A stretch of 64,000 bases of DNA. It comes from Acutalibacteraceae bacterium. GTDB taxonomy: Bacteria > Bacillota > Clostridia > Oscillospirales > Acutalibacteraceae. Below are positions 22,117 through 58,865 of the stretch, one piece after another. The notes under the pieces are model-generated. The model saw only the letters and a program-made list of their open reading frames with translations, searched no databases and was not told the DNA's origin. The position numbers were made by a program, and so were the translations under genes. The stretch lies in NCBI GenBank assembly GCA_045604685.1, contig JAZUON010000007.1, positions 10,197 to 74,196 of the forward strand. Direction: 5' to 3'. Position 1 is the stretch's first letter. Every line of letters begins with the position of its first letter.

Positions 22117-23973
22117 TTAAAATGCAAAGAATGAAACGATTTTATCAAAAACATCCTTAAGAATATTTATAAAATATCTGATGAACACCGGCAGCTTTGT
22201 GTTTCCGGGCATTTCGTCTGCCTCAGTTGCGCCGCTGTAGCTTTCAAGCACGGTTATACCGAAAGTCTTTTCAGCCGATTCAAAAACATTCTTTGTTTCC
22301 GAATAAGACACATTTATTCTGCCGCTCTTTGCTTCTTTCGCGGTTACGGTTATGTTAACACTTTCACCGGGGAGAAGCACCTTTCTGAACGAATAATCGG
22401 GCGTTACGGCGCCGTTATCGCACTCCACGGAATTGATAACAAATGTCTTTTCCTTGGAAACATTTTTAAGAATCATTGTGTATTCTTCCCTACCGTCCTC
22501 AAGGAGAAGGAAATTGCTGTTGGTATTTACAAATCTTATTGAAAGGGCTGATGTGGGTGATTCGCTCTGCATAAACTGAGGGAATTCGTAGGATGAATAT
22601 GCATCCTTGATATCATCGGTGAAAAGCAGAGCTTCAACAAGGGCAAGTGACCTTGGGCACCACTCAACCTGACCGTGAAAAAGGCCGTCAACAACCCATG
22701 TTCTGTGGGGCCAGTAGCCTGCGGAAAGGTCAATTGTTCTGTCGGGCGAAATGCTGTTTTTGCCGTTATCAACCGCCTGCACATAGTCCTCGGGGAAGGT
22801 TTCGCCGTAGGGTGCGCAGATTGCGCCTGTTGAATATTTTGTGTCAACAATGCAGTCCGAATATTCAGCCGAAGGAGTAACAAGATCAAAACCCGTGCAT
22901 GCCTTGATTGAAACAGTTGCTCCGTGCTCCGTTGCCTTTTCAAAGGTTTCGGTAATGTTGCCCATAAAGCCTTTATGGAAGTTCTTAACCGCCTTTATAA
23001 CCTCGGCATTTGCATCTTCATCAAGAAGCATCGCTGCATGCTCGTCAAACTCATCAACGGGAACCATCTGCCAGAAAGCAATACAGCCTTTCATAGGAGG
23101 TATAAGGATATTTTTACCGATATCGATTGCGCCTGCAATCCATTCGCCCTCAAGGAACGAAACAAGCTCCTCACTTTCGGAGAGCTTAAGCTCCATATGG
23201 AGAATATCGGAAAGAAGGTCAAGGATCACGGGGAAATTAAGGGTTACGCCGCCTTCGGAAAGCAAATCCGAAACAAAGGTTGAGCCGCCGAGAACAGGAG
23301 TATCAAAAACAACCTTATCGGTTTGTTCAAGCTCTGCATACTTATAAAGATACTGACCCACAACAAGGCTGCCCTGGCTGATTGAATAAATACTCACCTT
23401 TTCTGCGCCCGTAAGCTCAAGCACATCGTCAATATATGCCTTGAATTCATCAGCGACAACATCATAATCAACTCGCCAGTCATACATAAAGTTGAACACG
23501 TTTTCCTCACCGATGCGGTCTGCGATTGATTCCATATCAAGGAATTCGGAGCCCGTATAGGGCACATAATTGAGCATATCCTGCTCTTTGAATGCGGCAA
23601 GCGAGGTGTTTTCCGCGCCGCTGATAATAGGCTTCACATCATAGGCTGATGTGCCGTCATCATTAACTCTGATTGTTTCAATAATTCTTTCAACAATTGC
23701 CGAAAGCTGAACAACATAGCCCTCATCCTGCATCCAGATTTCAAGCTCACTCAATGCTTTTTCAAGAGTAAGGCTATCATCAATTCCTATTGCTTCAAGA
23801 ATCTTATCACCTGAAGGCGGGAATACTGCTTCGCCGTTCATGGCAAGGGCTGTTGCGCCGAAGCCCGACACCATAACAACGGGAGTGACTTTTGATGTTG
23901 CTGCCGCAAAGGGTATTGCTGCAAAGGCAACAACCGCAGCCATAATAAATGCTAAAAATCTTTTCATTTTCAT
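22117..23973 (-). CDS. secreted alpha/beta-hydrolase, lipase/LCAT-like, with C-terminal amphipathic tail
   Basis: 618 aa with a signal peptide (MKMKRFLAFIMAAVVAFAAIPFAAA), PVVMVSGFG and the nucleophile-elbow-like YSISQGS. The tail is FIRYFINILKDVFDKIVSFFAF. Confidence 0.55.
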   Translation of the reverse strand: MKMKRFLAFIMAAVVAFAAIPFAAATSKVTPVVMVSGFGATALAMNGEAVFPPSGDKILEAIGIDDSLTLEKALSELEIWMQDEGYVVQLSAIVERIIETIRVNDDGTSAYDVKPIISGAENTSLAAFKEQDMLNYVPYTGSEFLDMESIADRIGEENVFNFMYDWRVDYDVVADEFKAYIDDVLELTGAEKVSIYSISQGSLVVGQYLYKYAELEQTDKVVFDTPVLGGSTFVSDLLSEGGVTLNFPVILDLLSDILHMELKLSESEELVSFLEGEWIAGAIDIGKNILIPPMKGCIAFWQMVPVDEFDEHAAMLLDEDANAEVIKAVKNFHKGFMGNITETFEKATEHGATVSIKACTGFDLVTPSAEYSDCIVDTKYSTGAICAPYGETFPEDYVQAVDNGKNSISPDRTIDLSAGYWPHRTWVVDGLFHGQVEWCPRSLALVEALLFTDDIKDAYSSYEFPQFMQSESPTSALSIRFVNTNSNFLLLEDGREEYTMILKNVSKEKTFVINSVECDNGAVTPDYSFRKVLLPGESVNITVTAKEAKSGRINVSYSETKNVFESAEKTFGITVLESYSGATEADEMPGNTKLPVFIRYFINILKDVFDKIVSFFAF

Positions 23974-23978
23974 TCTCC

Positions 23979-24926
23979 TTATATTTCAAACTGCTTACGG
24001 TCAGCGGTTATGATTCCGTCTTTTACATTAAGACGGCAGATTCTTGCATTTCTTCTGTCGCCCTCAAGGCCGTCCTCTTCAGCATTGCGGGCGTGATAAA
24101 CCGCATACCACTCGTCTTTATGCTTAATCATTGAGTGGTGACCCGTGCCCTCCTCCCATTCATTGCTGTTAAGCACGGGGGCATAGGTTTTATCATCGGG
24201 ATATTTTTCAAATTTGATTTTGGTAAGGTCTGTTTCATCGGTTTTTGCCCTGGCATAACCGATGAAATATTTTTCATTTTCATAGCAGGCACCACTATAC
24301 ATTACATACTGCCAATCGCCTTCTTTGAAGTAAAATGCGCCCTCAAGGGTGTGCCAATGAATACCCTTTTCGTATCTGTCCCTGCAATATATTTCCTCAT
24401 CTATTGAGGCGGTTATAACGGGCACAGGCTTGCCCTCAACTGTTTCGGGATCAAGAAGCCTGTCAACAACAATATATGTGCCTATGCGGCTGCCCTCAAA
24501 GGTGTTGGTTGAATAGAAAATGAAGAGTCCGTTTTCGTTTTTGACAACATGGGAGTCAATCGAAAAAGGATGCAAAAGCTGCTTGGCATTTTCAAAGGGA
24601 CCGAGGGGATTTTTGCTTGAGGAAACGAACATTGCCTGATGATGTCCACCCTCATCGGGAATATCATCGTAATACTCAAATGAGTTATACATATAAAATG
24701 TACCGTCAAGCTCAATAACAGAGGGTGCCCAATAGTCATGCACTGTGGGATTATCATAACTGAAAACTCTGCCCTCAAACTGCCAGCCCGAAAGAAGCTC
24801 ATCCGAGGAATAGGCATAAATGCCGTCCTTGCCCGTGGTGTAGATATAAAATCTGCCGCCGCTTTCAAGAATAAACGGGTCTGCCTGGCCAATGTATTTC
24901 TCTTTATTTATTTCAAGTAACTGCAT
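23979..24926 (-). CDS. glycoside hydrolase family 43 (xylosidase/arabinofuranosidase-like)
   Basis: 315 aa with ADPFIL, WAPSVIELDGTFYMY and a five-bladed-propeller pattern. No signal peptide. Confidence 0.8.
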   Translation of the reverse strand: MQLLEINKEKYIGQADPFILESGGRFYIYTTGKDGIYAYSSDELLSGWQFEGRVFSYDNPTVHDYWAPSVIELDGTFYMYNSFEYYDDIPDEGGHHQAMFVSSSKNPLGPFENAKQLLHPFSIDSHVVKNENGLFIFYSTNTFEGSRIGTYIVVDRLLDPETVEGKPVPVITASIDEEIYCRDRYEKGIHWHTLEGAFYFKEGDWQYVMYSGACYENEKYFIGYARAKTDETDLTKIKFEKYPDDKTYAPVLNSNEWEEGTGHHSMIKHKDEWYAVYHARNAEEDGLEGDRRNARICRLNVKDGIITADRKQFEI

Positions 24927-24936
24927 AGCCTACCTC

Positions 24937-25227
24937 TTAAATCACATAATCAACTGCAACGCTGCTTTCTCTCACGGCATGCATATGGGTTTTGACAACC
25001 GAGCAATGGTAGGGGTCATTCTGATAGCTTTCAAGAGCCGCTTCATCATCAAGCACAACCTCAAGGATAAGGTCGTATGAACGCTCGGAATGAAGAAAAT
25101 CAATGCCCACCGCAATGTCACGAAGCTGAGGAACATTCCCTTTCATTGAAAGGAGCACTTCCTTTGCCCTTTCGCATTCTGCAGGGCTGTTATCCTTTAA
25201 TTTAAAGCAAACAATATGTTTTATCAT
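24937..25227 (-). CDS. Dabb (stress-responsive A/B-barrel) family protein
   Basis: MIKHIVCFKLKDN...HSERSYDLILEVVLDDEAALESYQNDPYH. The internal ATG at 25227 gives the canonical ~96-aa protein. Confidence 0.75.
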   Translation of the reverse strand: MIKHIVCFKLKDNSPAECERAKEVLLSMKGNVPQLRDIAVGIDFLHSERSYDLILEVVLDDEAALESYQNDPYHCSVVKTHMHAVRESSVAVDYVI

Positions 25228-25307
25228 AAACCACACACTTCCCATATTACAATTTTGTTGAAATTGTAACATATTTCAGCATTTTTTTCAATACAAAGAA
25301 ACAAAAA

Positions 25308-25333
25308 AATCCGACAGCCGAAGCCATCGGATT
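25308..25333 (-). terminator. intrinsic terminator after pyrI
   Basis: On the minus strand: AATCCGA-loop-TCGGATT followed by TTTTTTTG. Confidence 0.75.
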
Positions 25334-25339
25334 TTGAAA

Positions 25340-25756
25340 TTATTTTGCTTTTGACTCGCAGTAAATGCAGCGGTATGTCTCTGTTTCTGCATTTGTGAGC
25401 TTGAAAATATGGGGCAAATCCTGCTCCGTTGTTGTTATGCAGCGGGGATTTTTGCACTTAACAACATCCTTTATCATTGCAGGAAGAGTCAGCTTTTTCT
25501 TTTCGCAAAGCTGCTCATTTTTGATTATATTAACCGTGATGTTGGGGTCAATATAACCCAGCACCTCAAGATCAACCTCCATTTCGGAGTCAATTTTAAT
25601 TATATCCTTGCGTCCCATTTTTTTGCTGCTTACATTTTTGATAATGGCAACGGTGCAATCCAGCTTATCAAGCTCAAGATGCTTATAGATATCCATGCAC
25701 TTACCTGCTTTGATATGGTCAATTACAACGCCGTTTTTGATAGAATCAATATGCAT
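25340..25756 (-). CDS. pyrI: aspartate carbamoyltransferase regulatory subunit
   Basis: 138 aa with IKNGVVIDHI and C-terminal Zn cysteines (CKNPRC...CIYC). Confidence 0.92.
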   Translation of the reverse strand: MHIDSIKNGVVIDHIKAGKCMDIYKHLELDKLDCTVAIIKNVSSKKMGRKDIIKIDSEMEVDLEVLGYIDPNITVNIIKNEQLCEKKKLTLPAMIKDVVKCKNPRCITTTEQDLPHIFKLTNAETETYRCIYCESKAK

Positions 25757-26671
25757 TTACTCCACCTCCAGCAGTTTAAGAATAAGAGCCATACGGATGA
25801 ATTTGCCGTTAAGCACCTGCCTGAAATAGCAAGCTCTGGGGTCTGCATCAACAGAGGTATGAATCTCATTAACTCTGGGCAGCGGATGAAGAATTGCAAG
25901 GTCGCTCTTGGCATTTGACAGCTTTGAGGGAGTGAGAATATAGCTGTCCTTAAGCCTGAGGTAATCCTCCTCGTTGAAGAAGCGCTCACGCTGAACCCTT
26001 GTCATATAAAGAATATCAAGCTCGGGCATTACTGCACTTAAATCCGTTGTTTCAACATACTCAATGCCCTTTGCATCAAGGGTTTCCTTTTTAAGATATC
26101 CGGGAAGCTGAAGCTCATAAGGTGAGATAAGCACAACCTTAATACCCGTGTATCTTGACATAGCCTCAATAAGAGAATGAACCGTTCTGCCAAACTTAAG
26201 GTCACCGCAGAAGCCAATTGTAAGATTATCGAGCCTGCCTTTTTCACGCTTGATTGTAAGCAGGTCGGTAAGGGTCTGGGTGGGGTGGTTATGGCCGCCG
26301 TCACCTGCATTGATAATGGGAACACTTGCTGCCATTGAAGCAACAAGGGGTGCTCCCTCCTTGGGGTGGCGCATAGCAATAATATCCGCATAGCAGCTTA
26401 CCGTTCTTGCGGTATCTGCAACGCTTTCACCCTTCGCGGCTGAGGAGGAGTTGGCCTCCGAAAAGCCGAGCACCTGACCGCCAAGCTCATACATTGCAGC
26501 CTCAAAGCTGAGGCGTGTTCTTGTTGACGGCTCAAAGAAAAGGGTTGCGAGCTTTTTATAACGGCACTTATCACGGTATTTTACGGGATTTGCAATAATA
26601 TCCTCGGCAACCGCAATAAGTTCATCAATTTCTTCTGTTGAGAGCGAAAGAATGTCTATAAGACTTCTCAT
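25757..26671 (-). CDS. pyrB: aspartate carbamoyltransferase catalytic subunit
   Basis: 304 aa with STRTR, HPTQ and HPLPR motifs. Confidence 0.95.
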
Positions 26672-27306
26672 TTTGCTCCCCCTATCCAGCTTTCGTCGGA
26701 GGGGTTATTTCTGAAAGCGATAAGACGGGCAACATCCTCGGGCTTGATATAGCCGATTTCCGCTGCTACTTCTGCTATAACATCAAGGTTTGTAAGGCTG
26801 ACATTCTTAACATTTGCTGCTGCAAGTCTGTCAAGACCCTTCTTCATGCCGTAGGTGAAAATGCTGGCGATACCAAGCACCTCTGCGCCTGCTTCACGGA
26901 GAGCTTCAACAACCTCAATTACGCTGCCGCCTGTTGAAATAAGGTCCTCAATAACAACAACCTTCTGACCCTTTTCCAGCTTGCCTTCAATCTGGTTGCC
27001 TCTGCCGTGGTCCTTTGCACCTGAGCGAACATAACCCATAGGCATATCAAGCATATGAGCTGTGATTGCAGCGTGTGCGATGCCTGCGGTTGATGTGCCC
27101 ATAAGCACCTCTGCATCGGGATAATGATTCTTAACAATTTCTGCAAGACCCTTTTCAACATCTGTTCTTACTGCGGGGGCGGTAAGGGTGAGTCTGTTGT
27201 CACAGTAAATGGGGCTTTTGATTCCGCTTGCCCATGTGAAGGGCTCTTCAGGGCGGAGAAAAACCGCACCGATTGAAAGTAAATCTTTTGCAATAAGCTT
27301 TTCCAT
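26668..27306 (-). CDS. pyrE: orotate phosphoribosyltransferase
   Basis: 212 aa with the PRPP-binding motif [13 protein letters not shown]. Has a 4-nt overlap with pyrB. Confidence 0.93.
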
Positions 27307-27336
27307 ATATATAACCTCCTGAGTATTATTAACGAA

Positions 27337-30917: not shown

Positions 30918-30941
30918 ACCCTTTCATCAGTTACTTTATTA

Positions 30942-30969
30942 AGTATACCATATTAAAAGAAAAAGTCAA
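30942..30969 (-). promoter_or_regulatory. putative sigma-A promoter of the pyr operon
   Basis: On the minus strand: TTGACT-16 nt-TATACT with an extended TG. About 25 nt upstream of the pyrC ATG. Confidence 0.5.
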
Positions 30970-30987
30970 CCTTTAAAAACAAAAATA

Positions 30988-31011: not shown

Positions 31012-31015
31012 CACA

Positions 31016-33502: not shown

Positions 33503-33505
33503 AAT

Positions 33506-41743: not shown

Positions 41744-44062
41744 TTATTTTCCTGCTCTCAGGTCAACGCGCCTGATTTTGCCGCTGATTGTTTTGGGAAG
41801 CTCATCCCTGAACTCAACGATTCTGGGATATTTATAGGGTGCAGTGCGCTCCTTGACGTATTTCTGAATTTCCTTTTTAAGAGCATCCGTTTTTTCTGTT
41901 CCCTTTGTAAGAACTATATCAGCCTTAACAACCTGACCTCTGATTTCATCGGGTGCAGCTGAAACGGCGCATTCAAGAACATAAGGGAGCTCCATGATAA
42001 CGCTTTCTATCTCGAAGGGTCCGATGCGGTAGCCCGATGACTTGATGAGATCATCAACTCTGCCCACATACCAGAAGAAACCGTCTTCATCTCTCCATGC
42101 GGTATCGCCGGTATGATAGATATTATCGTGCCATGCTTCGGTTGTTTTCTGCTCGTCGCGATAGTATTCCATGAACAGGCCGCAGGGTGAACCTGCATCT
42201 GTTCTGACAACGATTTCGCCAACCTCGCCCACCTTTGCGATTGTTCCCTCGGATGTGATAAGATCAACATCAAAAAGAGGACTGGGCTTACCCATTGAAC
42301 CGACCTTAATTGATGAACCTACAAAATTACCTATAGCAAGGGTTGTTTCCGTCTGGCCGAAACCTTCCATAAGTCTTATACCCGTTGCCTTGAGGAACTG
42401 CTGGAACACCTCGGGGTTGAGAGCCTCGCCTGCGGTTGTTGCATACTTGATTGACTTAAGGTCATATTTTGCAAGGTCTTCCTTAACAAAGAAACGATAC
42501 ATTGTGGGAGGTGCGCAGAAGGTTGTTATTTTATGCTTTCCGATGAGCTTAAGAATATCATCGGCAATGAAGCGGTCAAAGTCATAGGTGAAAACACCTG
42601 CCTCGCAAAGCCACTGACCGTAGAGCTTGCCCCAGAGAGCCTTGCCCCAGCCTGTATCTGAAATCGTAAAGTGCAGGCCGTTGGGGTCAACATTGTGCCA
42701 ATATTTGGCGGTGATGAAATGACCGAGGGGATATCTGTGGCTGTGCATTGCAATTTTGGGATAGCCCGTTGTTCCGCTTGTGAAGAACATAAGCATGGGG
42801 TCATAACCGAAAGCTCCTTCCTCAGGAGAGGGTCTTTCAAAAACATCGCTGAACTTGCAGTATTCTTCATCAAAGCTGTGCCAGCCATCACGGGTACCGT
42901 GAGCAACAATCTTTGTTTTGAGAACATCTGCTTTTTCTGCAGCAAGCTCAACCTGACGGGCAACATCACCGTCGGCAGTGCAGACAATTGCGCTTATCTG
43001 ACCCGCATTGAAGCGATATTCAAAATCATGCTCAACAAGCTGATTTGTTGCAGGAACAACAATTGCGCCTATCTTATGAAGTGCAAGGATTGAGAACCAG
43101 AACTGATAGTGGCGCTTAAGAACAAGCATTACTCTGTCGCCCTTTTTAATGCCGAGAGATTTGAAATAGTTGGCAGTCATTGCCGAATGGCGGCTCATAT
43201 CGCCAAAGGTAAATCTTCTCTCCGTGCCGTCATTTTCAACATGGAGCATCGCCGTTTTATCGGGACACTTTTTAGCAAGCTCATCAACAACGTCAAAAGC
43301 AAAGTTGAACTTGTCATCATTTTTAAAAGTTATTCCGTTAAGAACGCCGTTTTCATCAACAGTTGTTTCAATAAAATTGGCGTAAACGGGATTCTGAAGG
43401 TTAGCGAGGTCAACATTTGTTGCGCTGGGAGTTTTGATTTCCTCAACATATTCGCTCATTTCCGACGAGCCGTCCGGCGAAATAACGATTGCATAAAATT
43501 CGCATTCCTGACCGCCAACTGCAATTTCGTTATGAGGCACCGATGAATCGAAATATATACAGTCGCCTTCGTTGAGGGTTTCGGTTCTGTCACCGATAAT
43601 CATTTTAAGAGCACCTTTTGTGACAATGTTTATCTCCTGTCCTTCATGAGAAACACAGTGATAGGGAGGATTAAGAGCCTCCTCCGAATAAGGAATCACA
43701 ACCCTGAAGGGCTCTGCAATTTTGTTTTTAAAGAAAGGAGCAAGGCGGTTATATACAAAGCCTTCTCTTCTTGTTATTGGCATTCCTTCGCCTTTTCTTG
43801 TGAGAGTGTACTCTGTCAAGCTGGGGCTGCTGCCTTCCATAATATCGGTAATTTCAACATTGCAAACCTGCGCGAGTTTATAAATGAAGGTGAAGCTGAA
43901 ATCTCTGCTACCTGATTCATAGTAGCAATATTCTTCTTCGCTCATACCGATTTTTTTAGCCATTTCGCCCTGGGTAAGACCCATATCCAGACGAAGCGCA
44001 ATAATTCGCTGAGCAACCTCCATTATTTTGTTTTCGACTGAACCCTGACCAAAAGTTATCAT
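41744..44062 (-). CDS. fusion protein: XRE HTH plus cupin plus AMP-forming (medium-chain-type) acyl-CoA synthetase
   Basis: 772 aa. The HTH is LRLDMGLTQGEMAKKIGMSEEEYCYYESG, the cupin GDCIYFDSSVPH. Adenylate-forming motifs are FFTSGTTGYPK, YHTGD, GRVDDLIKSSGYRIGPFEIE and PKTISGKIRR. AAAGGAGAG RBS. Confidence 0.85.
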   Translation of the reverse strand: MITFGQGSVENKIMEVAQRIIALRLDMGLTQGEMAKKIGMSEEEYCYYESGSRDFSFTFIYKLAQVCNVEITDIMEGSSPSLTEYTLTRKGEGMPITRREGFVYNRLAPFFKNKIAEPFRVVIPYSEEALNPPYHCVSHEGQEINIVTKGALKMIIGDRTETLNEGDCIYFDSSVPHNEIAVGGQECEFYAIVISPDGSSEMSEYVEEIKTPSATNVDLANLQNPVYANFIETTVDENGVLNGITFKNDDKFNFAFDVVDELAKKCPDKTAMLHVENDGTERRFTFGDMSRHSAMTANYFKSLGIKKGDRVMLVLKRHYQFWFSILALHKIGAIVVPATNQLVEHDFEYRFNAGQISAIVCTADGDVARQVELAAEKADVLKTKIVAHGTRDGWHSFDEEYCKFSDVFERPSPEEGAFGYDPMLMFFTSGTTGYPKIAMHSHRYPLGHFITAKYWHNVDPNGLHFTISDTGWGKALWGKLYGQWLCEAGVFTYDFDRFIADDILKLIGKHKITTFCAPPTMYRFFVKEDLAKYDLKSIKYATTAGEALNPEVFQQFLKATGIRLMEGFGQTETTLAIGNFVGSSIKVGSMGKPSPLFDVDLITSEGTIAKVGEVGEIVVRTDAGSPCGLFMEYYRDEQKTTEAWHDNIYHTGDTAWRDEDGFFWYVGRVDDLIKSSGYRIGPFEIESVIMELPYVLECAVSAAPDEIRGQVVKADIVLTKGTEKTDALKKEIQKYVKERTAPYKYPRIVEFRDELPKTISGKIRRVDLRAGK

Positions 44063-44457: not shown

Positions 44458-46257
44458 TCAGATTTTGTTTTCCAAGCCTAAAATTACAACTGCTTTTTCA
44501 ACAATATTGCCTGCAAGAATGGTCATTTTGTCAACAAGAGACTCAAAGAAGCTCTTTTCTTCTGCATCATATGTTGCAACAGTTCCGATATTTGCGCTGA
44601 TAAAGGCTGTTTTTTCATCCACGAAATCTGCAACCTTTTTAACATCATTTGCATATGCAGCCTTAATTTCAGCAACATCCGTTGTGCCGTAAACATTCCA
44701 GCGGATTGCATTTGCAACAGCTGAATCCTCTATTGCTGCCACATAATCCGTTGTTATATATTCAGCAGCAGAGCTGAATGCATTTTTCAGAACCAAATCC
44801 CACTTCTCCTTGCAAAGATTAATGAAATCCTGATTTTTAGCAAGAAGATTATAGAATGTGGGGATATGAGTTAACTCGCCGGCTCCGAAAATCGTGTTGT
44901 TACGAAGAGTGCTGCGATAAACAGTCCACTGAGAGGGCTTGTTATAATTCAAACCGAATCTGACCACATCGCAGTTACCCAGAGCTTTATCAAAATCCCA
45001 AACGGGGCCTGCATAAAGAGTGTCGTCAACGGGTTTGTAGAGATATGTGCTGGTAAGGCCTGCATCATGATTTGCCACCCACTCATTGAAAACATAGGAA
45101 TCAACAAGAGAATTAATATTGCAGTATTCACCGATTGCATCAATGCTCTGATTGCCGTGAACAGCATTTTCAAAAAGCTGATAATAGCTTGCAATGTAAA
45201 TCACCTCATTTTCAGAGGCATATTCGGGGGATTTGAGGATAACCGCCTGACTGTTTTCCGTTACAAAGCCGCTGACCTCATCATCATATCTGCCGGGAAG
45301 CTCCAATTCGATAATGTAGCCGCCTGTGATATCCTTGGGGTCATTGGGAATTTCAACCCATTTTCTTGTGCCCTCAAGGTAGCCTGACAAGCTGCCGTAA
45401 ACACCGCCTCTGGGCAATGCCTCAATATCAACATCGGGATTTGCATCTTCATTAAGGTCTTCAAGATTATCAATGTTGACTCTTGTTTTATCAACCTCAA
45501 CCCTCGTTGTGAGAAGATAGGCGCCCATATATTCACCGTTTATGTAAACATCAACGGGCTCATACTTGGGGGTATAAGCTATTCCCGCATTCTCTGCCGC
45601 GGTGAAAGCAAGGCTGTTTCTGATAAGCGATGCATCCGAATAATTGGCAAGGAGGCTCCATTTTTTGCTCTTGCCCATGCCGAAAAGATTTACTTTATCC
45701 TCCAACTTGATGTTATAGGGCTTTTTATCAAGGCCCCAGGTTGAGTTGCCTCTGCCTTTGATGTAATCAAGCTCGCCGTCGCATTCAACGCTGCCGTCTG
45801 CGCCGATGATTGTGATTTCACCTTTTTCCTTGTGCTCCTTATCTGCATGCACACTGTCAAGCGAACCGCTTTCGGTTTCGATAAACACTGTTGATACATC
45901 TGATATAGCTATAATCTTTATCTTATAGCTTGCGCTGCCGCTTGTGAGTGTTACTTCGGTTTTATCTGCAAGGAATGCAGCGGATGAGCCATCTTCAATC
46001 TTAACACCGTCCGCATAAACATCGCCGCTTGCTGAAAAATTAACCTTTGCCTCGTCAAAGTTAATTGACTGAGGCACAAAAAGATACATTGCATCATCTG
46101 CAGCATACCATTCAATGCAAAGCTGAGCGCCGTGTTCTTTTTCTTCAATAATTCCTACCGAAAACTCGGATATTGCATCATCTGCGGCAAATCCCGCAAG
46201 GCATCCGAATGAGCAGGAAATAATAATTGCCATAAGTACAGAAATAACTCTTTTCAC
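44458..46257 (-). CDS. secreted CotH-family (atypical kinase fold) protein, paralog 1
   Basis: 599 aa with a signal peptide. IKGRGNSTWGLDKKPYNIKL...GMGKSKKWSLLANYSDASLIRN...YEPVDVYINGEYMGAYLL is a CotH signature. It has the C-terminal amphipathic tail. Confidence 0.8.
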   Translation of the reverse strand: MKRVISVLMAIIISCSFGCLAGFAADDAISEFSVGIIEEKEHGAQLCIEWYAADDAMYLFVPQSINFDEAKVNFSASGDVYADGVKIEDGSSAAFLADKTEVTLTSGSASYKIKIIAISDVSTVFIETESGSLDSVHADKEHKEKGEITIIGADGSVECDGELDYIKGRGNSTWGLDKKPYNIKLEDKVNLFGMGKSKKWSLLANYSDASLIRNSLAFTAAENAGIAYTPKYEPVDVYINGEYMGAYLLTTRVEVDKTRVNIDNLEDLNEDANPDVDIEALPRGGVYGSLSGYLEGTRKWVEIPNDPKDITGGYIIELELPGRYDDEVSGFVTENSQAVILKSPEYASENEVIYIASYYQLFENAVHGNQSIDAIGEYCNINSLVDSYVFNEWVANHDAGLTSTYLYKPVDDTLYAGPVWDFDKALGNCDVVRFGLNYNKPSQWTVYRSTLRNNTIFGAGELTHIPTFYNLLAKNQDFINLCKEKWDLVLKNAFSSAAEYITTDYVAAIEDSAVANAIRWNVYGTTDVAEIKAAYANDVKKVADFVDEKTAFISANIGTVATYDAEEKSFFESLVDKMTILAGNIVEKAVVILGLENKI

Positions 46258-46318: not shown

Positions 46319-48109
46319 TCAGATTTTGTTTACAAGATCAAATATAACAATAGCCTTTTCAAAAATGTTGTTAACACCAACAAGGAAGCCCTTGAAGAAC
46401 TTAACAACGGGGTTGGTCTGAGGAGCATTATCCTGCACCTCGTCTACACCTGCGCTGATTGTTGCAGCCTTTGTTTTTGCAAAGTTGATTACTTCCTTAA
46501 CCTCATCTGCATATGCAGCCTTGATATCGTCTATATCATCTGTGCCGAAAATGTTCCAGCGGATTGCATTCGCAACAGCGGAGCCCTCAACAAAGGGAGC
46601 ATAGATGCTTTCAACCCAAGCCGTTGTTGTGTTAAGTGCGGTGCTCATACCGCCGTTCCATTCAGCTTCAAGAACGTCAACAAAGCCCTCGTTCTTTGTG
46701 ATTATGTTGAACACATTGGGCTGCTCGTCAATATCCCACTTGCCGAAAATTGTGTTTCTGTACATTCTGTTGTAGCAAACAGTCCATTTCGTGGGGTCGT
46801 TATAATTATTTCCAAAGCGTTCGCCGTCGTTATTGCCGAAAGCAATGTCAAAATCCCATACAGGGCCTGCATAGAGGGTTTCGTGTACGCCCTTGGGCTT
46901 GTAGAAATATGTGCTTGTAAGGCCGCCGTCCATATTGGATGCCCACTCATTAATGAGATAAAGACGTGCAAGAGACTGAACATTGCAATATTTGCCGATT
47001 TCCGCCATATCGGACTCAGCATAAACAGCATCCTCAAACAACTGATAAAGGCTACTGATATAGCTGATCTGTGCCTCTGAGACAAATTCGGGAGTTTTCA
47101 TTGTAAAAGGCTGGTTACGGGTTGTAACAAAGCCGCATGCCTCGTCAGCATATCTGTTGGCAAGCTCCATTTCGATGATGTAGCCACCTGTGATATCTTC
47201 GGGGTCATTGGGAATATCATACCATTTCTTTGTGCCTGCAAGAAGGCCTGCATATGTGCCGTAATAACCCGCCTTGGGGTAGGTATCAAGGTCTGCCTCG
47301 TTTGCATCCTCTGTTGCGCCCTCAAGGTCCTCAATATCAACACTTGTGCCGTCAATACCCACTCTTGTTGTAAGAAGGTATGAACCCATATATTCGCTGT
47401 TAATGTAAACATCAACGGGCTCAAACTGAGGTGAATAAGGCATACCGGCCGCTTTTGCTGCTTCGTATGCAAGAACGTTTCTGATAAGGGACTCATCGCC
47501 GTGGTTTGCAATAAGGCTCCATTTTTTGCTCTTGCCCATACCGAAAAGGTTGGTTTTCTTATCCAGCTTGATGTTATAGGGTTTCTTTTCCATCTGCCAT
47601 GTTGAGTTGCCTCTGCCCTTGATTTCAAGCTCACCGTCATAAACAACTTCGCCGTCACGGTCAACAATTTCAATCATACCGTTTTCTTCGTTACCCTTAA
47701 CGGCATGGATATAATCAAGAGAACCTGACTCGGTTTCAATAAATACAGAAGCAACCTCTGAACCCTTGATGATAAAAACATCGTATGTCCAGCCGTCAAA
47801 TTCAACCGTAATCTCTGTTTTATTGCCAAAAACCTCTGCAAGAGTTTTGGGCTCGGTATAATCTACGCCGTCAACGGTGTAGTCGCCGGGAACATAAAAC
47901 TTTGCGGTATCATAATCAATTGATGCGGGAATAAAGAAATAACATTTGCCGTTTACCTCATACCAGTTGATTGCTCTGTCATAGCCGTTCTCTTCATCAT
48001 AATGATTTGCAATATAACCGGTAACGTGATGACCATCAGCATAACCTATCATTGCAAATGCCGAAAATGCCATAACCGCAGCAAGAATGAATGCTAAAAT
48101 TTTTTTCAT
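46319..48109 (-). CDS. secreted CotH-family protein, paralog 2
   Basis: 596 aa, roughly 55-60 percent identical by eye to paralog 1 over the CotH core. It has a signal peptide and the same C-terminal ...IFEKAIVIFDLVNKI-type tail. Confidence 0.8.
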   Translation of the reverse strand: MKKILAFILAAVMAFSAFAMIGYADGHHVTGYIANHYDEENGYDRAINWYEVNGKCYFFIPASIDYDTAKFYVPGDYTVDGVDYTEPKTLAEVFGNKTEITVEFDGWTYDVFIIKGSEVASVFIETESGSLDYIHAVKGNEENGMIEIVDRDGEVVYDGELEIKGRGNSTWQMEKKPYNIKLDKKTNLFGMGKSKKWSLIANHGDESLIRNVLAYEAAKAAGMPYSPQFEPVDVYINSEYMGSYLLTTRVGIDGTSVDIEDLEGATEDANEADLDTYPKAGYYGTYAGLLAGTKKWYDIPNDPEDITGGYIIEMELANRYADEACGFVTTRNQPFTMKTPEFVSEAQISYISSLYQLFEDAVYAESDMAEIGKYCNVQSLARLYLINEWASNMDGGLTSTYFYKPKGVHETLYAGPVWDFDIAFGNNDGERFGNNYNDPTKWTVCYNRMYRNTIFGKWDIDEQPNVFNIITKNEGFVDVLEAEWNGGMSTALNTTTAWVESIYAPFVEGSAVANAIRWNIFGTDDIDDIKAAYADEVKEVINFAKTKAATISAGVDEVQDNAPQTNPVVKFFKGFLVGVNNIFEKAIVIFDLVNKI

Positions 48110-49806: not shown

Positions 49807-49812
49807 CGCTCC

Positions 49813-52752: not shown

Positions 52753-52760
52753 AATTCACC

Positions 52761-52994: not shown

Positions 52995-53156
52995 AGGAGC
53001 ACCCCCTGCATAAATATCCATTATGTATTATAACATTATATTTTTACAGTATCAATAAAAAATTGTCAAAATTTCATCAATATTTTGTTTTTTCTTCTTC
53101 CAATACACCCTTGCATATGGTATGATATAATCAAAAAGTACGGGGGACTAAAAACT

Positions 53157-54701
53157 ATGTTTGTTGTAACAAGCAATCAGATGTATCAGGCAGAATGCAA
53201 TGCAGTTAAGAGAGGCATTTCGTTCCCTCAGCTTATGGAAAACGCAGGTCAGGCCTGCGCTAAAATAATAAAAACCAAATTTTCAATCAGCAAATCAAGC
53301 CCGAAAAAGGTTCTGGTTATCTGCGGCAAGGGCAAAAACGGCGGCGACGGCTTTGTTATTGCCCGCGCGCTTTGGGAAGCAGGCTGCAAGGTGACCGTTA
53401 TGCTTGCCTGCGGAGAGCCCAAGGCTGCGGATTCCGTTAATATGTTTTCGCTCATAGAAGCGGCAGGCATTGATGTTATCCGTTATGACAACAACCTGAC
53501 TCTCCACAGACCCTTGCTTGAGGATTCGGATATTATTGTTGAGGCGGTTTTCGGTACGGGCTTTTCTGGCTCGCTCAACCATTCACTCAGCGTGCTTGCT
53601 CAGGCAGTTAATGCAGCAAAGGGCAAGGTTGTTTCAATTGATGTTCCTGCAGGCGCAGATTGCGACAAGGCAACGGTTGCGGGAGTTTGCTTCAGGGCGG
53701 ATATGACAATTGCAATTTCTGCATACAAGCCCATTCATATAATGAAACCCTGCAACAAATACTGCGGCAGAATATATGTTGCAGACATAGGCATAACCGA
53801 AAACGACTATAAAAACCTTGACGGTGTTGCCTGCTTCACCCTCGGCGCCCCCGAAATCCGTAATATGCTGCCAAAGCGTAAGCCGGTTTCGAACAAGGGC
53901 ACCTACGGCCATGCGCTGTGTGTTTGCGGCAGCATGAAAATGACGGGCGCGGCTTATCTTTCCGTCAGCGGTGCATTGAGGTCGGGAGTCGGCCTTGTTA
54001 CCGCGGCATTCCCTCAAAGCGCATATGCAGGCATTGCTCCAAAGCTGACAGAGCCTCTGCTGCTGCCTCTTGAATCAAACTTTGAGGGCACATTTGCATA
54101 TTCGGCAATGGCAGATATCATTGAAGCATCAAAAAGGTCAAGCGCCGTGCTCATCGGCTGCGGCATAGGCTTCAACAAGGACACAACAACTCTTGTTCAT
54201 AATCTTATAAAAGAAATAAAATCGCCGATTATTCTGGATGCAGACGGCATAAATGCCCTGAGCACAAATATAGATATATTGAAAGAAGCTCAGGCTCCCG
54301 TTATTATCACCCCTCATCCGGGCGAAATGAGCCGCCTTTGCGGAAAAACAGTTGCCGAAATAATTGCAAATCCTATCGGCATTGCCTGCGAGTTTGCAAA
54401 GAAATACGGCGTTACCGTTGTTCTCAAAACCGCAAACACTGTTGTTTGTGACGGGAAATCAGGCGTTTATATCAACACAACGGGCAATTCAGGGCTTTCA
54501 AAGGGCGGCAGCGGCGACCTGCTGGCAGGCATGACCGTTTCGTTTGTTGCTCAGGGAATGAACCCCTTTGATGCAGCGGTTTCCGCAGTTTATCTGCACG
54601 GACTCGGCGCAGACATCGTTGCAGAAAAAACTTCCATGAGAGGCATGCTGCCGAGCGATGTTCTGAATTATCTGCCTGAGCTTTTTTCAAAATTTGAATA
54701 G
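53157..54701 (+). CDS. nnr: bifunctional NAD(P)H-hydrate epimerase / ADP-dependent dehydratase
   Basis: YjeF N-terminal domain (VICGKGKNGGDGFVIAR) plus C-terminal carbohydrate-kinase domain (GTYGHALCVCGS..., GGSGDLLAG). The ATG at 53157 is internal to the track ORF. Confidence 0.88.
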   Translation: MFVVTSNQMYQAECNAVKRGISFPQLMENAGQACAKIIKTKFSISKSSPKKVLVICGKGKNGGDGFVIARALWEAGCKVTVMLACGEPKAADSVNMFSLIEAAGIDVIRYDNNLTLHRPLLEDSDIIVEAVFGTGFSGSLNHSLSVLAQAVNAAKGKVVSIDVPAGADCDKATVAGVCFRADMTIAISAYKPIHIMKPCNKYCGRIYVADIGITENDYKNLDGVACFTLGAPEIRNMLPKRKPVSNKGTYGHALCVCGSMKMTGAAYLSVSGALRSGVGLVTAAFPQSAYAGIAPKLTEPLLLPLESNFEGTFAYSAMADIIEASKRSSAVLIGCGIGFNKDTTTLVHNLIKEIKSPIILDADGINALSTNIDILKEAQAPVIITPHPGEMSRLCGKTVAEIIANPIGIACEFAKKYGVTVVLKTANTVVCDGKSGVYINTTGNSGLSKGGSGDLLAGMTVSFVAQGMNPFDAAVSAVYLHGLGADIVAEKTSMRGMLPSDVLNYLPELFSKFE

Positions 54702-54712
54702 CAGGTGATTAT

Positions 54713-55231
54713 TTGAAAAAAGCATTTTCTCTTTTTGCCGCAATCTTTGTTTTGCTTGCGGCAGGATGTGAAAAGCAAGGCGAATCCATCAGCGCCCCTC
54801 CCCCTGCCCCTACGGCATTCACCTCGGAAATAACCGCCGTTTGCGGCAACTCGGAAATGACAGCATTGCTCACTCAAAATGCCGCCGAGGATTTCACGCT
54901 GAAATTTCTCACTCCAGAAGCCCTTGCGCCGCTTTCCGTGGAATATAAAAACGGCGGATGCAAGGTTACATATGACGGACTTTCCTTTGAAACGGATTTA
55001 AACCGCTTTCCGCAAACGGAAATGGGCGCACTGCTGACAAATGCACTGTCCGATGCGGTTCAGGGAATGAACCTGCAAACGGCATATTCAGACGGAATAT
55101 GGACCTACACGGGAACGGGCGAGAGAGGCACATTCACCCTCACCCGCAACGGCGAAACGGGAGAATGGATTGATTTCACCGCTAAAGGCGCCGACCTGAA
55201 AATAACATTCTCTCCGCAGAATAACCAATAA
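54713..55231 (+). CDS. lipoprotein, unknown function
   Basis: MKKAFSLFAAIFVLLAAGCEK carries a lipobox. TTG start after AGGTGA. Confidence 0.6.
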   Translation: MKKAFSLFAAIFVLLAAGCEKQGESISAPPPAPTAFTSEITAVCGNSEMTALLTQNAAEDFTLKFLTPEALAPLSVEYKNGGCKVTYDGLSFETDLNRFPQTEMGALLTNALSDAVQGMNLQTAYSDGIWTYTGTGERGTFTLTRNGETGEWIDFTAKGADLKITFSPQNNQ

Positions 55232-55245
55232 ATAAAATAAAAATT

Positions 55246-55271
55246 GCACCGCACTCAACCGAGTGCGGTGC
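55246..55271. terminator. bidirectional intrinsic terminator
   Basis: GCACCGCACTC-AACC-GAGTGCGGTGC with T-tracts on both strands. Confidence 0.8.
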
Positions 55272-55278
55272 TTTTGAT

Positions 55279-57060
55279 TTAATATCGCAATGTAAAAATA
55301 TATCTGATAATTTCCTTGAATTTCAGAAACAACATTTCCATAAACCTGTCAAGGGTAACAACATTATTTGTGTAGTAAGCCCTTTCCATGAAATCTCCGC
55401 AATGGCTGCAGGTGCTTCTGCTTATTTGTCTGCCATTCTCGGAACTGTAAGCGAAATCAGTCCATTCGCCGTAATCGTGGCCCGTTGCACCGATAACACG
55501 CTCAGCTTCAACCTTTCCGCATTGGGTGCACTGAATTTTTTCGATTCCATCCACGGTGCAGGTTGCATCCTGAGTCAGTGCTTCAAGCTGATGATTGCAC
55601 TTTGTAAGCGCCTGAATATAAACATTATGAGCGCTCTGTGTTGATGTTGAAATCCAACTGTTACCCGTAGCGGAAACATTAATGAAGCTCTCGCCCTCTC
55701 TGCTGCTATAGGTCAGTCCATCCGCAACAGTCTTTTCAATAGGGATATATGTTGTTCCGTTAGGGTTATAATATTCAACAACAACGGAGAATATTTCACC
55801 CGGTTCAAGAACAACTGCGGAGTCAAGATATATGGTATGGTAACCTTCATTGCCAAGAACGGTTTCAACCGTGCATGCAGCAGTTCCCTGAACGGGAGAT
55901 GAGTATCCATCAGAAATATTTTTATATACAGTTGCTTCGATTTCAATATTCTCACCGTAGGTCTGAACCGCAATTGCCGTCAGGCTTTCATAACCGCTTG
56001 CGGTGAAAACATTTGCAACCTGAAATGCACGGGAAAGACCCAGAGCACTGTACCATTCAGCGCCGTTATAGCTGTAGTTCTTATAGTAATCCTCAGATTT
56101 CTGAACGGAATAGCCTGCAAAAAGAGTGATTGACGCGTCATAATAAGAAATCCAGAAATAGCCGCCGTCACCCCAATAGGTTCCCCAACTGTTTTTGCAA
56201 AGCCATGCGCCGTTAGCAGAGGGAGTGCATGTGCTTTTAAAATTTGATGCTGAAAAGCTGTCGTCCCATCCAACAACAACAATCTGATGGTTTATGGAGC
56301 CGGTTGTTGCGGTGCAATAAGCCGCAGATGATGAATTGTAGCAACTGCCTTCGTAGTAAAACGCTGCAGTTACCGAGCCGTGGTCGACTATCCACTGCTT
56401 AACATCCTCCGCACTTGTGAGCGACTGCGCGGATTCCAGAATCACGCCGCCTGATGTGTTATATCTGTCACTTTCGGCATAATTGCCCATGCTTTCAAGG
56501 CTGCTGCCGTAAAACGGAAATTCTGTTTCCTCCGCTGCGCCTGACCACCTTGCAAGGGATGCAGCAGAAATTTTCCAGTTGCCGCCGCGAAGATAAGGCT
56601 CATCGAAATAATAACCGTCGCCGTAGGCAAGGTCGTTTTCATCCTCGGCACGGCCTCTGCTTGCAAACCACACGTGATGAGCCTCTGAAAAATCTGCCGA
56701 TGAGGCTGATTCATATCCTTTAATAATACTGTCACTCTCAAGAAGGCTCATTGCAGAAAACGACCAGCATACGCCTGAATCGCCCTGGCTTTTAACCCGT
56801 GTTACATAGCCTTTATCAACCGCGCTGTATGCCGCAGGAAGGCTTGACGACTGACAGCCCAGCTCATTATTCTCAAAAACAACCTCGTTACCGTTTTCAT
56901 CAACATAACGGTAGTTTATCAGCCCGCCCTCCTGCTCCGTGTTTTCAACATAAATATAAGTGAACATATCCTTTGCCGAATATGCGGGCAGGGCAGCAAA
57001 GGAAAGCATCAGCATCACCGAAAGAATAAGTGACATGAACCTTTGGGCTGCTTTTTTCAT
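55279..57060 (-). CDS. secreted papain-family (C1) cysteine peptidase with Cys/His-rich C-terminal module and amphipathic tail
   Basis: 593 aa with a signal peptide, catalytic Cys context QGDSGVCWSFSA, His context INHQIVVVGWDD, and NSWGTYWGDGGYFWISY. Confidence 0.85.
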   Translation of the reverse strand: MKKAAQRFMSLILSVMLMLSFAALPAYSAKDMFTYIYVENTEQEGGLINYRYVDENGNEVVFENNELGCQSSSLPAAYSAVDKGYVTRVKSQGDSGVCWSFSAMSLLESDSIIKGYESASSADFSEAHHVWFASRGRAEDENDLAYGDGYYFDEPYLRGGNWKISAASLARWSGAAEETEFPFYGSSLESMGNYAESDRYNTSGGVILESAQSLTSAEDVKQWIVDHGSVTAAFYYEGSCYNSSSAAYCTATTGSINHQIVVVGWDDSFSASNFKSTCTPSANGAWLCKNSWGTYWGDGGYFWISYYDASITLFAGYSVQKSEDYYKNYSYNGAEWYSALGLSRAFQVANVFTASGYESLTAIAVQTYGENIEIEATVYKNISDGYSSPVQGTAACTVETVLGNEGYHTIYLDSAVVLEPGEIFSVVVEYYNPNGTTYIPIEKTVADGLTYSSREGESFINVSATGNSWISTSTQSAHNVYIQALTKCNHQLEALTQDATCTVDGIEKIQCTQCGKVEAERVIGATGHDYGEWTDFAYSSENGRQISRSTCSHCGDFMERAYYTNNVVTLDRFMEMLFLKFKEIIRYIFTLRY

Positions 57061-57305
57061 TTAAACCATCTCCGTTTTTTATCGTTCTGTAAATAAGACG
57101 AATTAAAAGGTGCTACGGTTTGATTTTTCAGAAAATTTTTATTTTATATTTCCGATACCTTTATTATAGCACCGGAATATAATAAAGTAAAGGACATGCG
57201 AGGATGAAATTTTTTGCTCCCCGATTTCAAACATGTGTTTAATTTGCCTGCCGTGTGTCAAAAATAGTTGTGAGATAACTTAGCAGCAAAAAGCTGCAAT
57301 GGAGA

Positions 57306-57668
57306 GTGATAACCTTGACCGTTAAACGGGGAGAAATTTATTACGCTGACCTGAGCCCTGTTATCGGCTCCGAGCAGGGCGGCACAAGACCCGTGCTGAT
57401 TGTTCAGAACGATGTTGGCAACAAATTCAGCCCAACGGTTATTGCCGCAGCAATAACAAGCCAGCGATTCAAAACCAGCCTGCCTACCCACATAAGAGTC
57501 AACGCCGACGGCTGCGGACTTGCCAAGGATTCCATTGTTCTTCTTGAGCAGGTACGAACACTTGACAAGAAAAGACTGCGCGAAAAAATGGGAATTCTTG
57601 ACGAGAGCGATATGAACAGAGTTGACAGAGCTCTTTCCGTAAGCCTCGGAATCGGTATTGCAGAATAA
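57306..57668 (+). CDS. mazF: MazF/PemK-family endoribonuclease toxin (EndoA-like)
   Basis: [46 protein letters not shown] is a near-consensus MazF. The start is either the GTG at 57306 or, with better RBS spacing, the TTG at 57315. Confidence 0.9.
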
Positions 57669-57674
57669 ACTTAA

Positions 57675-57700
57675 GGCTGCCTTAAACAGTAAAGGCAGCC
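57675..57700 (+). terminator. intrinsic terminator after mazF
   Basis: GGCTGCCTT-loop-AAGGCAGCC followed by GTTCTTTG. Confidence 0.65.
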
Positions 57701-57806
57701 GTTCTTTGTATTCAACAACTTTTAAAAAATTTTTTCGAAATTTCTATTGCATAAAAGGATTCAAAAATGTAAAATAGTTTTATCACAAACCGCGAGGTGC
57801 AAAAAC

Positions 57807-58865
57807 ATGAAATCATTCAAAAAAATCATTGCAATTTTAATTGCCGCCTGCCTTATTGCCGCAAGCCTTTGCCTCGGCGCTCATGCAACGGGCAGAAAAG
57901 ATGCTCTTCCCACCTCAGCAGGCATTCAGGCTCTGCGCAATGAATTTGAGCATGACGTTGCTCCCGAAGAGGACGGCTACGCCCTCGACTACTGCTACTA
58001 TTCACCCGCAGGAAAAAACGACACGGGAAAATACCCCCTTGTTATCTTCCTTCACGGCATAGGCCATGCAGACTACGAAGGCTATCAGCTTAACGACAGC
58101 GATATGCCTTATTGGGCATCCTCAGAGCTTCAGAGCCGTTTCACAAGCGGCGGCGCATTTATCCTTCTTCCCCGCGCTCCCGAAGACCAGCTTGTTTACT
58201 GGAATTCTTCTCTCATTGAGCCCCTTCGCGTTTTGATTGATGACTTCATTGCAAAGCATGGCAACAACATTGACACAACAAAAATTTTCATCACCGGCAG
58301 CTCCGCAGGCGGTGAAATGGCATGGGATATGGTTATCTCCTTCCCCGAATATTTTGCAGGTGCATTTCCCATTGCTGCAACAGGCACTGTCAGCGCTTCA
58401 GAAGTAAAGAAATGTGCCGATGTTGCAATATGGATGATTGCAAGCGAAAAAGACCCTATTGTTAATTATTCGCTTGTTACTCAGCCTCTTTGGAGCAATG
58501 TTAAAGCATACAACAGCAACCCCGCAAACTGCCGCCTTTCAAGCCTTACCAATGTAATTGAGCCGAGCGGCAACTCCGCAAGCGACAACCACCACCTTGC
58601 AAAGGTTATTACTTACGATTTTCATATGCTTGACGGCAGCACCTACCCCAATGTTACAACCGTTGACGGCAACGGCAACACCGTTAACCTTGAAAGTCCC
58701 AACGGCCTGATTTACTGGATGAATTCGGTTTCTTCATCATTTGACGGCAAAGCAGGCACAGGCACGGGCAAACAAACCATTACTATTATTGATGACATCA
58801 TTAATTTCTTACGCAACTATGTGCTTAAGGTAGTCAACATCTTCCAGAGACTTCTCGGATTATAA
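57807..58865 (+). CDS. secreted alpha/beta-hydrolase esterase with C-terminal amphipathic tail
   Basis: Signal peptide MKSFKKIIAILIAACLIAASLCLGAHA, YPLVIFLHG, and the nucleophile elbow GSSAGG. The ATG at 57807 is internal to the track ORF. Confidence 0.7.
   Translation: MKSFKKIIAILIAACLIAASLCLGAHATGRKDALPTSAGIQALRNEFEHDVAPEEDGYALDYCYYSPAGKNDTGKYPLVIFLHGIGHADYEGYQLNDSDMPYWASSELQSRFTSGGAFILLPRAPEDQLVYWNSSLIEPLRVLIDDFIAKHGNNIDTTKIFITGSSAGGEMAWDMVISFPEYFAGAFPIAATGTVSASEVKKCADVAIWMIASEKDPIVNYSLVTQPLWSNVKAYNSNPANCRLSSLTNVIEPSGNSASDNHHLAKVITYDFHMLDGSTYPNVTTVDGNGNTVNLESPNGLIYWMNSVSSSFDGKAGTGTGKQTITIIDDIINFLRNYVLKVVNIFQRLLGL

Follow-up and report, generated by a model that had tools for sequence, protein, structure and literature searches.

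A C-terminal amphipathic tail on unrelated secreted enzymes of an Acutalibacteraceae bacterium: a possible PBP5-type membrane anchor

Results

The five tail-bearing enzymes

Five enzymes encoded in a 64,000-nucleotide stretch of an Acutalibacteraceae genome (assembly GCA_045604685.1, contig JAZUON010000007.1, positions 10,197 to 74,196; below, the window) have a Sec-type signal peptide at the N-terminus and end in a hydrophobic, amphipathic tail of 21-30 residues, which is the subject of this study. The signal peptides were called by heuristic reading rather than by SignalP. The window is an ordinary chromosomal stretch with a GC content of ~45%, and the closest relatives of its proteins are found in metagenome-assembled genomes labelled Acutalibacteraceae, Oscillospiraceae, Ruminococcaceae or Clostridia, from the ruminant, horse and human gut. 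A first-pass annotation of the window had quoted the five C-termini, and translation of the five coordinate ranges reproduces them exactly. It had also held the catalytic domains to be unrelated to one another, and this is so: two of the proteins are CotH paralogues, and the other three have a Peptidase_C1 domain with a Lectin_like domain, an esterase domain of the Abhydrolase_2/PHB-depolymerase-like type, and a lipase-like alpha/beta-hydrolase domain.

The lipase-like gene (22117-23973, minus strand) has its likely start at the ATG at 23967 and specifies the signal peptide MKRFLAFIMAAVVAFAAIPFAAA. A Pfam scan of the protein gave no match. The AlphaFold2 model, with a predicted local distance difference test score (pLDDT) of 88, shows an alpha/beta-hydrolase followed by a C-terminal immunoglobulin (Ig)-like sandwich, and the best Foldseek matches of the model are the phospholipases Tle4 and PlaB and bacterial lipases. 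The tail, KLPVFIRYFINILKDVFDKIVSFFAF (22120-22197, minus strand), is modeled as a helix of residues 594-614 of 616, behind a 19-residue coil linker.

The two CotH genes lie on the minus strand, and both products are identified by Pfam. Paralogue 1 (44458-46257) begins with GTG and ends in EKSFFESLVDKMTILAGNIVEKAVVILGLENKI (44461-44559); its signal peptide, in the region 46183-46257, contains a lipobox-like IISC/SFGC within a longer hydrophobic region that ends in an AxA-type site, so that the class of signal peptidase is ambiguous. Paralogue 2 (46319-48109) ends in NPVVKFFKGFLVGVNNIFEKAIVIFDLVNKI (46322-46414), a tail that is kept in the nearest representatives, P0241-P0243.

The secreted papain-family (C1) peptidase (55279-57060, minus strand) was assigned from Pfam and its AlphaFold2 model, and its tail, TLDRFMEMLFLKFKEIIRYIFTLRY (55282-55356), is modeled as a helix of residues 570-591 with pLDDT 85-88. 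Between the Lectin_like domain and the tail, at residues ~488-562 (55357-55590, minus strand), are Cys-rich, CxxC-type zinc-ribbon-like beta-hairpins (CTVDG..CTQCG...GHDYGEW...CSHCG), whose Cys, His and Trp residues are invariant in 26 homologues. The hairpin repeat is tandemly multiplied in proteins of two of the other loci surveyed (L050 and L073).

The secreted esterase, assigned by Pfam and NCBIfam, is the only one of the five on the plus strand (57807-58865). The open reading frame as listed opens with a TTG (57747); the likely start, an ATG (57807; MKSFKK...), lies 20 codons further downstream. The tail, ITIIDDIINFLRNYVLKVVNIFQRLLGL (58779-58862), follows a Gly/Thr-rich linker. As in CotH paralogue 1, the signal peptide has a lipobox-like sequence, here IAAC, within a longer hydrophobic region ending in an AxA-type site, and the signal peptidase class is again ambiguous.

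Physical character of the tails

The first-pass annotation had pointed to an amphipathic spacing of large hydrophobic residues. When the hydrophobic moment of each tail was compared with those of 20,000 shuffles of the same tail, the claim stood for four of the five (lipase-like, p = 0.0005; esterase, p = 0.0003; CotH2, p = 0.01; CotH1, p = 0.03), and the C1 tail was marginal over the full 21-mer (p = 0.10). The best 18-residue window of the C1 tail has a hydrophobic moment (muH) of 0.65, and it is there that AlphaFold2 places the helix. Three of the tails have their strongest periodicity at 100-105 degrees. Across the five, the hydrophobicity (H, Fauchere-Pliska) is 0.59-0.83, muH is 0.36-0.62, the lowest value being that of CotH1, the weakest tail of the set, and the net charge is -1 to +2. 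All five end in hydrophobic residues. Each tail has 4-7 charged residues spread over its 21-30 positions, and the longest uncharged run is 5-10 residues, so that no tail is a transmembrane (TM) helix. For two families, the lipase-like and the C1, AlphaFold2 models built with family alignments show a free terminal helix behind a coil linker.

Is there a sequence signature within the tails? A recurring I/V-F/V-x-K-I/A-V core had been suggested, and it does not hold: the core is present in three of the five tails, two of them the CotH paralogues, and is kept in only 2 of 81 lipase-family tails, and is thus no signature. Nor is the tail a repeated DNA cassette. Apart from 13 nucleotides common to the CotH paralogues, the tail-coding DNA segments are unrelated, and behind each gene stands a terminator of its own, a hairpin with a T-run, so that the tails are true gene ends.

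A hidden Markov model (HMM) of the lipase-family tails scores at most 11 bits on the tails of other families. Homology between families is therefore not demonstrable, and a database-wide search with a tail HMM could never reach significance. The position of the best hit of one family's tail HMM in unrelated proteins is more telling. The best hit of the lipase tail HMM fell at the extreme C-terminus in 91 of 111 members of the C1 family (5.5 expected) and in 19 of 77 CotH representatives (3.3 expected); for the C1 tail HMM the counts were 53 of 101 in the lipase family (4.9 expected) and 18 of 64 among the CotH representatives (2.8 expected). Judged from the sequences, then, the likeness of tails across families is real as a shared pattern and is not demonstrable homology.

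Conservation and exchange of the tail within families

In the lipase-like family a hydrophobic, amphipathic end of 20-25 residues is kept in about 115 of 120 homologues, at identities down to ~40%. The sequence of the tail drifts freely, and the amphipathic character stays. Over 143 distinct lipase-family tails, F is enriched 3.0-fold, I 2.6-fold and K 1.8-fold; there is a depletion of D, E, P and G; the most frequent net charge is +2; and in three of the 143, uncharged runs reach 19 residues. P0105 and P0113 are full-looking homologues that stop short of the tail. A doubled-looking, extended tail is seen in P0070, P0073 and P0074, for example ...FIFKMVIRIVGTVLSRIGFDLNSFISNGLDLGGLEDIISGIIF.

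The tail is likewise kept in nearly all of 120 C1 homologues. In five of them a dockerin-like end, GDxNGDGxCDVLD, replaces it; Pfam did not confirm these ends as dockerins.

For CotH, 1.84 billion cluster representatives were searched, and among the best 150 homologues, which were inspected, the C-terminal end is a variable slot. Some CotH homologues have plain amphipathic tails, such as VNFFQKIINFFKKIFDWFAKIFS and SLFDLLADFFRKIINFFKNLFK. In others the slot is filled by a Pfam-confirmed Dockerin_1, by a triple SLH, by a TM segment with a basic cluster, by fn3/Big_2-like ends, or by a Cys/His-flanked version of the amphipathic helix. The dockerin, SLH and TM ends indicate that the tail sits where known surface-anchoring modules sit. 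In part, the amphipathic matches scored in CotH representatives are no separate tail, being the last helix of the CotH domain itself.

The Cys/His-clamped version (CxCxCH...GFxxFFWKIxxFxxKLFG...CxCGxxH[YW]), which contains a helix of the plain kind, for example GFLQFIWKILRMLFKIFG, occurs on secreted proteins of Clostridia, namely CotH proteins, C1 peptidases and very large repeat proteins. It ends the products of L050:5891-9763 (plus strand), L073:20411-21670 (minus strand) and L113:9770-11377 (plus strand), and proteins P0252, P0264, P0285 and P0266. It differs from the plain tail in the invariant Cys and His residues that flank the helix at either end, possibly as metal ligands or in disulfides; the five window tails all lack them. 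The clamped C-terminus matches no Pfam or NCBIfam model, and a search of a large protein collection with an alignment of the motif gave a single candidate and no hit.

Enrichment on exported proteins

The main sample consisted of 80 loci (L001-L080; 1.31 Mb) around lipase-family genes in species-representative genomes, almost all of them Acutalibacteraceae. A tail was scored by criteria taken from the PBP5 anchor of Escherichia coli: muH >= 0.40, H >= 0.55, at least two charged residues, no internal Pro, and an end at most six residues from the C-terminus. The query (lipase) family was left out of the counts. For loci and window together, tails were found on 26 of 167 exported proteins, 18 of 684 cytoplasmic proteins and 6 of 230 membrane proteins (p = 3e-9), and after collapsing by family on 10 of 87, 8 of 367 and 5 of 128, respectively (p = 5e-4). 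The loci alone, which are independent of the window, gave 23 of 157 exported, 18 of 645 cytoplasmic and 6 of 223 membrane proteins (p = 1e-7), and, family-collapsed, 7 of 79, 8 of 353 and 5 of 124 (p = 0.01). In the window itself the same criteria pick out 4 of 11 exported and none of 39 cytoplasmic proteins. The enrichment on signal-peptide proteins over the cytoplasmic background that the first-pass annotation had made a test of its idea is thus found in Acutalibacteraceae loci, at ~15% versus ~3%.

Position within the protein tells the same way. For loci and window together, the hit rate per window of residues in exported proteins was 8.6% at the C-terminus versus 0.66% internally, a 13-fold excess; in cytoplasmic proteins it was 0.71% versus 0.40%, or 1.8-fold. 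Strict lipoproteins had no tail (0 of 25, versus 26 of 142 other exported proteins; p = 0.015), and the three clear lipoproteins of the window (DUF5696, DUF3798 and one small protein) have none. The earlier statement that every Sec-secreted non-lipoprotein of the window has the tail is slightly too strong, as a DUF5104 protein (58926-59909) has a hydrophobic N-terminus and no tail.

Other exported families of the loci also bear the tail: NAGPA phosphodiester glycosidases, PHP-domain proteins, further alpha/beta-hydrolases, and metallophosphoesterase-like proteins, whose family ends in ELNFFSKIFGVLINKIILAFFNLF. Amphipathic ends are also seen on related esterases in L014 and L041. The unrelated enzyme families with the tail number at least eight, and some homologues have no tail or have a dockerin-like, SLH or TM end instead, so that the tail behaves, as had been proposed, as a module independent of the catalytic domain.

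Tail-bearing esterase, NAGPA, PHP and metallophosphoesterase-like genes directly adjoin the tail-bearing lipase gene in many related genomes. Examples are L041:11903-12976 and L041:15465-16724, L044:11973-13331 and L044:13420-14739, all on the minus strand, and L054:12014-13159 (plus strand) with its orthologues.

Comparison with known signals and anchors

No model of Pfam or NCBIfam (release of June 2026) touches the five tails, even at E <= 1. LPXTG, PEP, GlyGly and PGF motifs and a C-terminal TM segment are absent from all five. As sortase substrates the proteins would have an LPXTG-like motif and a C-terminal TM segment, and none has either. For the exosortase, rhombosortase and archaeosortase systems (PEP-, GlyGly-, PGF- and Firmicu-CTERM), there was no NCBIfam CTERM match at E <= 1, and the motif and TM tests were negative. 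The lipase-like, CotH2 and C1 proteins have no Cys at the right place for a lipobox, L-[AS]-[GA]-C; CotH1 and the esterase have the lipobox-like strings described above. A Dockerin_1 match is absent from the five carriers and present in some homologues. The carriers also differ from tail-anchored proteins, in that a signal peptide is present and a TM helix is not. By these tests a known CTERM, LPXTG or dockerin signal is ruled out as the identity of the tail, and a lipobox for the most part, given the ambiguous strings of CotH1 and the esterase; the tail is no TM anchor, in agreement with the first-pass annotation.

The further claim that the tail matches no known sorting signal stands for the CTERM and LPXTG signals and largely for the lipobox, and is to be qualified in another respect: the tail resembles the amphipathic anchor of DD-carboxypeptidases of the PBP5/PBP6 type. 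PBP5, PBP6 and DacD of E. coli are held on the outer face of the inner membrane by a C-terminal amphipathic helix, and a PBP5 that lacks the 18 C-terminal residues is soluble and does not function in vivo (PMC2909392). In strain MG1655 the tail encoded by dacA, taken over 20 residues, has H 0.78, muH 0.55, a net charge of +1 and a longest uncharged run of 8. The values of H, muH and net charge are nearly equal to those of the tails here, and both kinds are Phe/Ile-rich with 'FF' near the start of the helix. The architecture is alike as well: a Sec signal peptide, a globular enzyme, a short linker, a terminal amphipathic helix of 18-25 residues, and no TM segment. The carriers have the sequence features of the PBP5-type class, namely a Sec signal peptide, a predicted terminal amphipathic helix (marginal in CotH1) and no membrane-spanning segment. 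A Pfam scan found no Peptidase_S11 or PBP5_C domain in them; they are not PBP5 members by descent. The two kinds of tail are not homologous, and their spread differs: the PBP5 anchor belongs to a single enzyme family of diderms, and the tails here occur within one Gram-positive lineage on enzymes of at least eight families that are unrelated.

The LPXTG, PEP-CTERM, GlyGly-CTERM, PGF-CTERM and Firmicu-CTERM signals share with the tails a C-terminal position, signal-peptide proteins with unrelated catalytic domains, lineage specificity and portability; unlike them, the tails have no signature motif, TM helix, basic cluster or NCBIfam match. Dockerin, SLH and TM-plus-basic anchors occupy the same C-terminal slot in CotH homologues, and possibly in C1 homologues; unlike the tail, which consists of one helix and for which Pfam has no model, these anchors are either folded domains or true TM segments, and their partners (cohesin, wall polymer) are known.

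The C-terminal amphipathic helices of MinD and FtsA are also short and terminal and bind the bilayer surface. They differ in acting at the cytoplasmic face, on proteins without signal peptides, and in being usually shorter (~10-15 residues). The second-best match of the tail HMM was to a cytoplasmic S-adenosylmethionine (SAM)-dependent methyltransferase (L025:5281-6078, plus strand), which ends in GFFKGIIDKIKK. This gene had been considered as a MinD positive control, and its product, being a SAM-dependent methyltransferase, is no such control. The end of the methyltransferase may be a membrane-targeting helix on the cytoplasmic side.

Discussion

What is the role of the tail? In our judgement, which draws on the analogy with PBP5, there is an even chance that the tails are PBP5-type in-plane anchors, that is, monotopic and peripheral, that hold Sec-exported enzymes at the outer leaflet of the membrane. 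An in-plane membrane anchor had been among the first-pass suggestions, and it fits all of the physicochemical data. The enzyme would be exported through Sec and the signal peptide removed by signal peptidase I. The last 20-25 residues would then fold on the outer leaflet of the cytoplasmic membrane, with a broad Phe/Ile/Leu face in the lipid and a narrow Lys/Arg-rich face at the headgroups, and a short flexible linker would keep the catalytic domain on the cell surface. For PBP5 and PBP6 of E. coli the mechanism is proven; for the present tails we infer membrane binding, and retention of the tail in the mature protein, beside the sequence features, conservation, helix prediction, enrichment and modularity that are observed. 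Since five unrelated secreted enzymes end in a PBP5-like helix, it is likely by analogy that such anchoring is general in the lineage, which probably uses the amphipathic tail as a general, unnamed way to hold exported enzymes on the cell membrane. In Acutalibacteraceae the tail would then be an alternative to lipidation, TM anchors, SLH repeats and dockerins.

Several points weigh against the anchor proposal. The tail of CotH1 is only weakly amphipathic, and its net charge is -1. In two C1 homologues, P0234 and P0239, a Dockerin_1 domain recognised by Pfam and a terminal amphipathic tail are found together, which means that the tail is not simply interchangeable with other anchors. A Tle4/PlaB-like phospholipase tethered to the membrane of its own producer also looks hazardous. 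The enrichment figures rest on home-made gene calls (greedy open reading frames) and a signal-peptide and TM heuristic, which are crude, and the thresholds for a tail were fixed after the data had been seen. Finally, in 80 loci around distant C1 homologues (30-36% identity, from broad gut metagenomes) there was no enrichment, with tails on 4 of 85 exported and 12 of 416 cytoplasmic proteins (p = 0.33). The enrichment is therefore lineage-restricted, or the crude detector is weak. The tail phenomenon seems to be concentrated in the Acutalibacteraceae-like lineage, with individual tails elsewhere too.

Might the helix bind a hydrophobic partner that is not the membrane of the producer? Lipids or esters are the substrates of several carriers, as the Tle4/PlaB-like phospholipase fold and the PHB-depolymerase-like esterases indicate, and the partner could be the membrane of a target or host, a membrane vesicle, a lipid droplet or a polymer substrate. 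Alternatively, the helix might drive self-association into bundles or micelle-like oligomers, which the hydrophobic fraction of 55-70% would also favour, and the co-occurrence of tail and dockerin in P0234 and P0239 speaks for a role of this general sort. CotH kinases, the C1 peptidase, NAGPA glycosidases, PHP proteins and metallophosphoesterases are among the carriers, however, and have no lipid substrate, and the exclusivity with lipoprotein anchoring is better explained by an equivalent retention role on the cell's own membrane. We regard another target, or self-association, as fairly unlikely. The idea that the tail spans the membrane, as an oligomeric or hairpin TM segment, draws on the much more hydrophobic members of the lipase family, with their long uncharged runs, and on the metallophosphoesterase end ELNFFSKIFGVLINKIILAFFNLF; the window tails, with their spread charges, short uncharged runs and no basic stop-transfer cluster after them, make it quite improbable. 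Least probable of all, with hardly any chance of being right, is coincidence, by which the tails would be ordinary last helices of folds or an effect of composition. Amphipathic helices are common, 2.6-2.8% of cytoplasmic proteins pass the filter, and the CotH-domain helix accounts for some of the CotH matches. Against this are the linker and free helix of the AlphaFold2 models, the keeping of the tail in more than 100 homologues in each of two families, the 13-fold C-terminal excess in exported proteins, and the unrelated tail-coding DNA segments, each with its own terminator hairpin.

A different kind of alternative is that the tail is a recognition tag, bound and perhaps cleaved by a dedicated system such as a PDZ-containing S41 C-terminal processing protease or a wall, spore or vesicle sorting enzyme. 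The behaviour of the tail is CTERM-like, in that it is C-terminal, lineage-restricted, present on many unrelated cargo families and absent from lipoproteins. Tail-specific proteases prefer hydrophobic C-terminal ends, and all five tails have them; the Cys/His-flanked version suggests a more structured recognition unit. Against a tag, there is no conserved signature motif before or within the helix, no Pfam or NCBIfam CTERM match, no TM helix or basic cluster, and no candidate sorting or processing gene beside the tail genes in the window; nothing points to a dedicated sorting enzyme. The divergence of sequence within families is what a purely physicochemical constraint is expected to give. For the spore-surface anchor that the first-pass annotation had also suggested, likewise, nothing points to the spore surface. 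A recognition tag is, we think, unlikely. The same small chance attaches to the broader form of the idea, in which the plain tail and its Cys/His-clamped relative would together be the cargo tag of a dedicated Oscillospirales sorting or processing pathway, serving vesicles, the septum, the spore surface or a wall compartment, perhaps with a C-terminal processing protease. If that were true, the pathway would be a new CTERM-type system without a TM segment, and not a passive anchor.

Returning to the proposed membrane anchor, how novel is it? The class of mechanism is already known; what is apparently new is its spread, within a single Gram-positive lineage of the gut, to many secreted enzymes that are unrelated. 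Accounts of Gram-positive surface display usually name lipoproteins, TM anchors, sortase substrates and wall-binding domains. A search of the literature available to us found no description of such tails in Clostridia or Ruminococcaceae, and the word 'amphipathic' appears nowhere in a comprehensive review of monoderm surface display (PMC5817068). If the proposal is correct, then in a family common in the gut and rumen about one exported protein in every six to ten would be held at the membrane by an amphipathic helix of 20 residues. The lipases, esterases, peptidases, CotH kinases and phosphoesterases concerned would then do their work on the cell surface and would not diffuse away into the lumen of the gut, and current predictions of secretomes and surfaceomes that call such enzymes 'extracellular' in uncultured commensals would be wrong. 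For anaerobic Firmicutes, the tail would also serve as a surface-display tag that is very small and genetically portable.

Other genes of the window

Among the other genes of the window are those for the sporulation protein YunB, glycoside hydrolases, pyrimidine biosynthesis and a two-component system. A single open reading frame of 772 residues (41744-44062, minus strand) is an unusual fusion of HTH_3, Cupin_2, an AMP-binding enzyme and AMP-binding_C.

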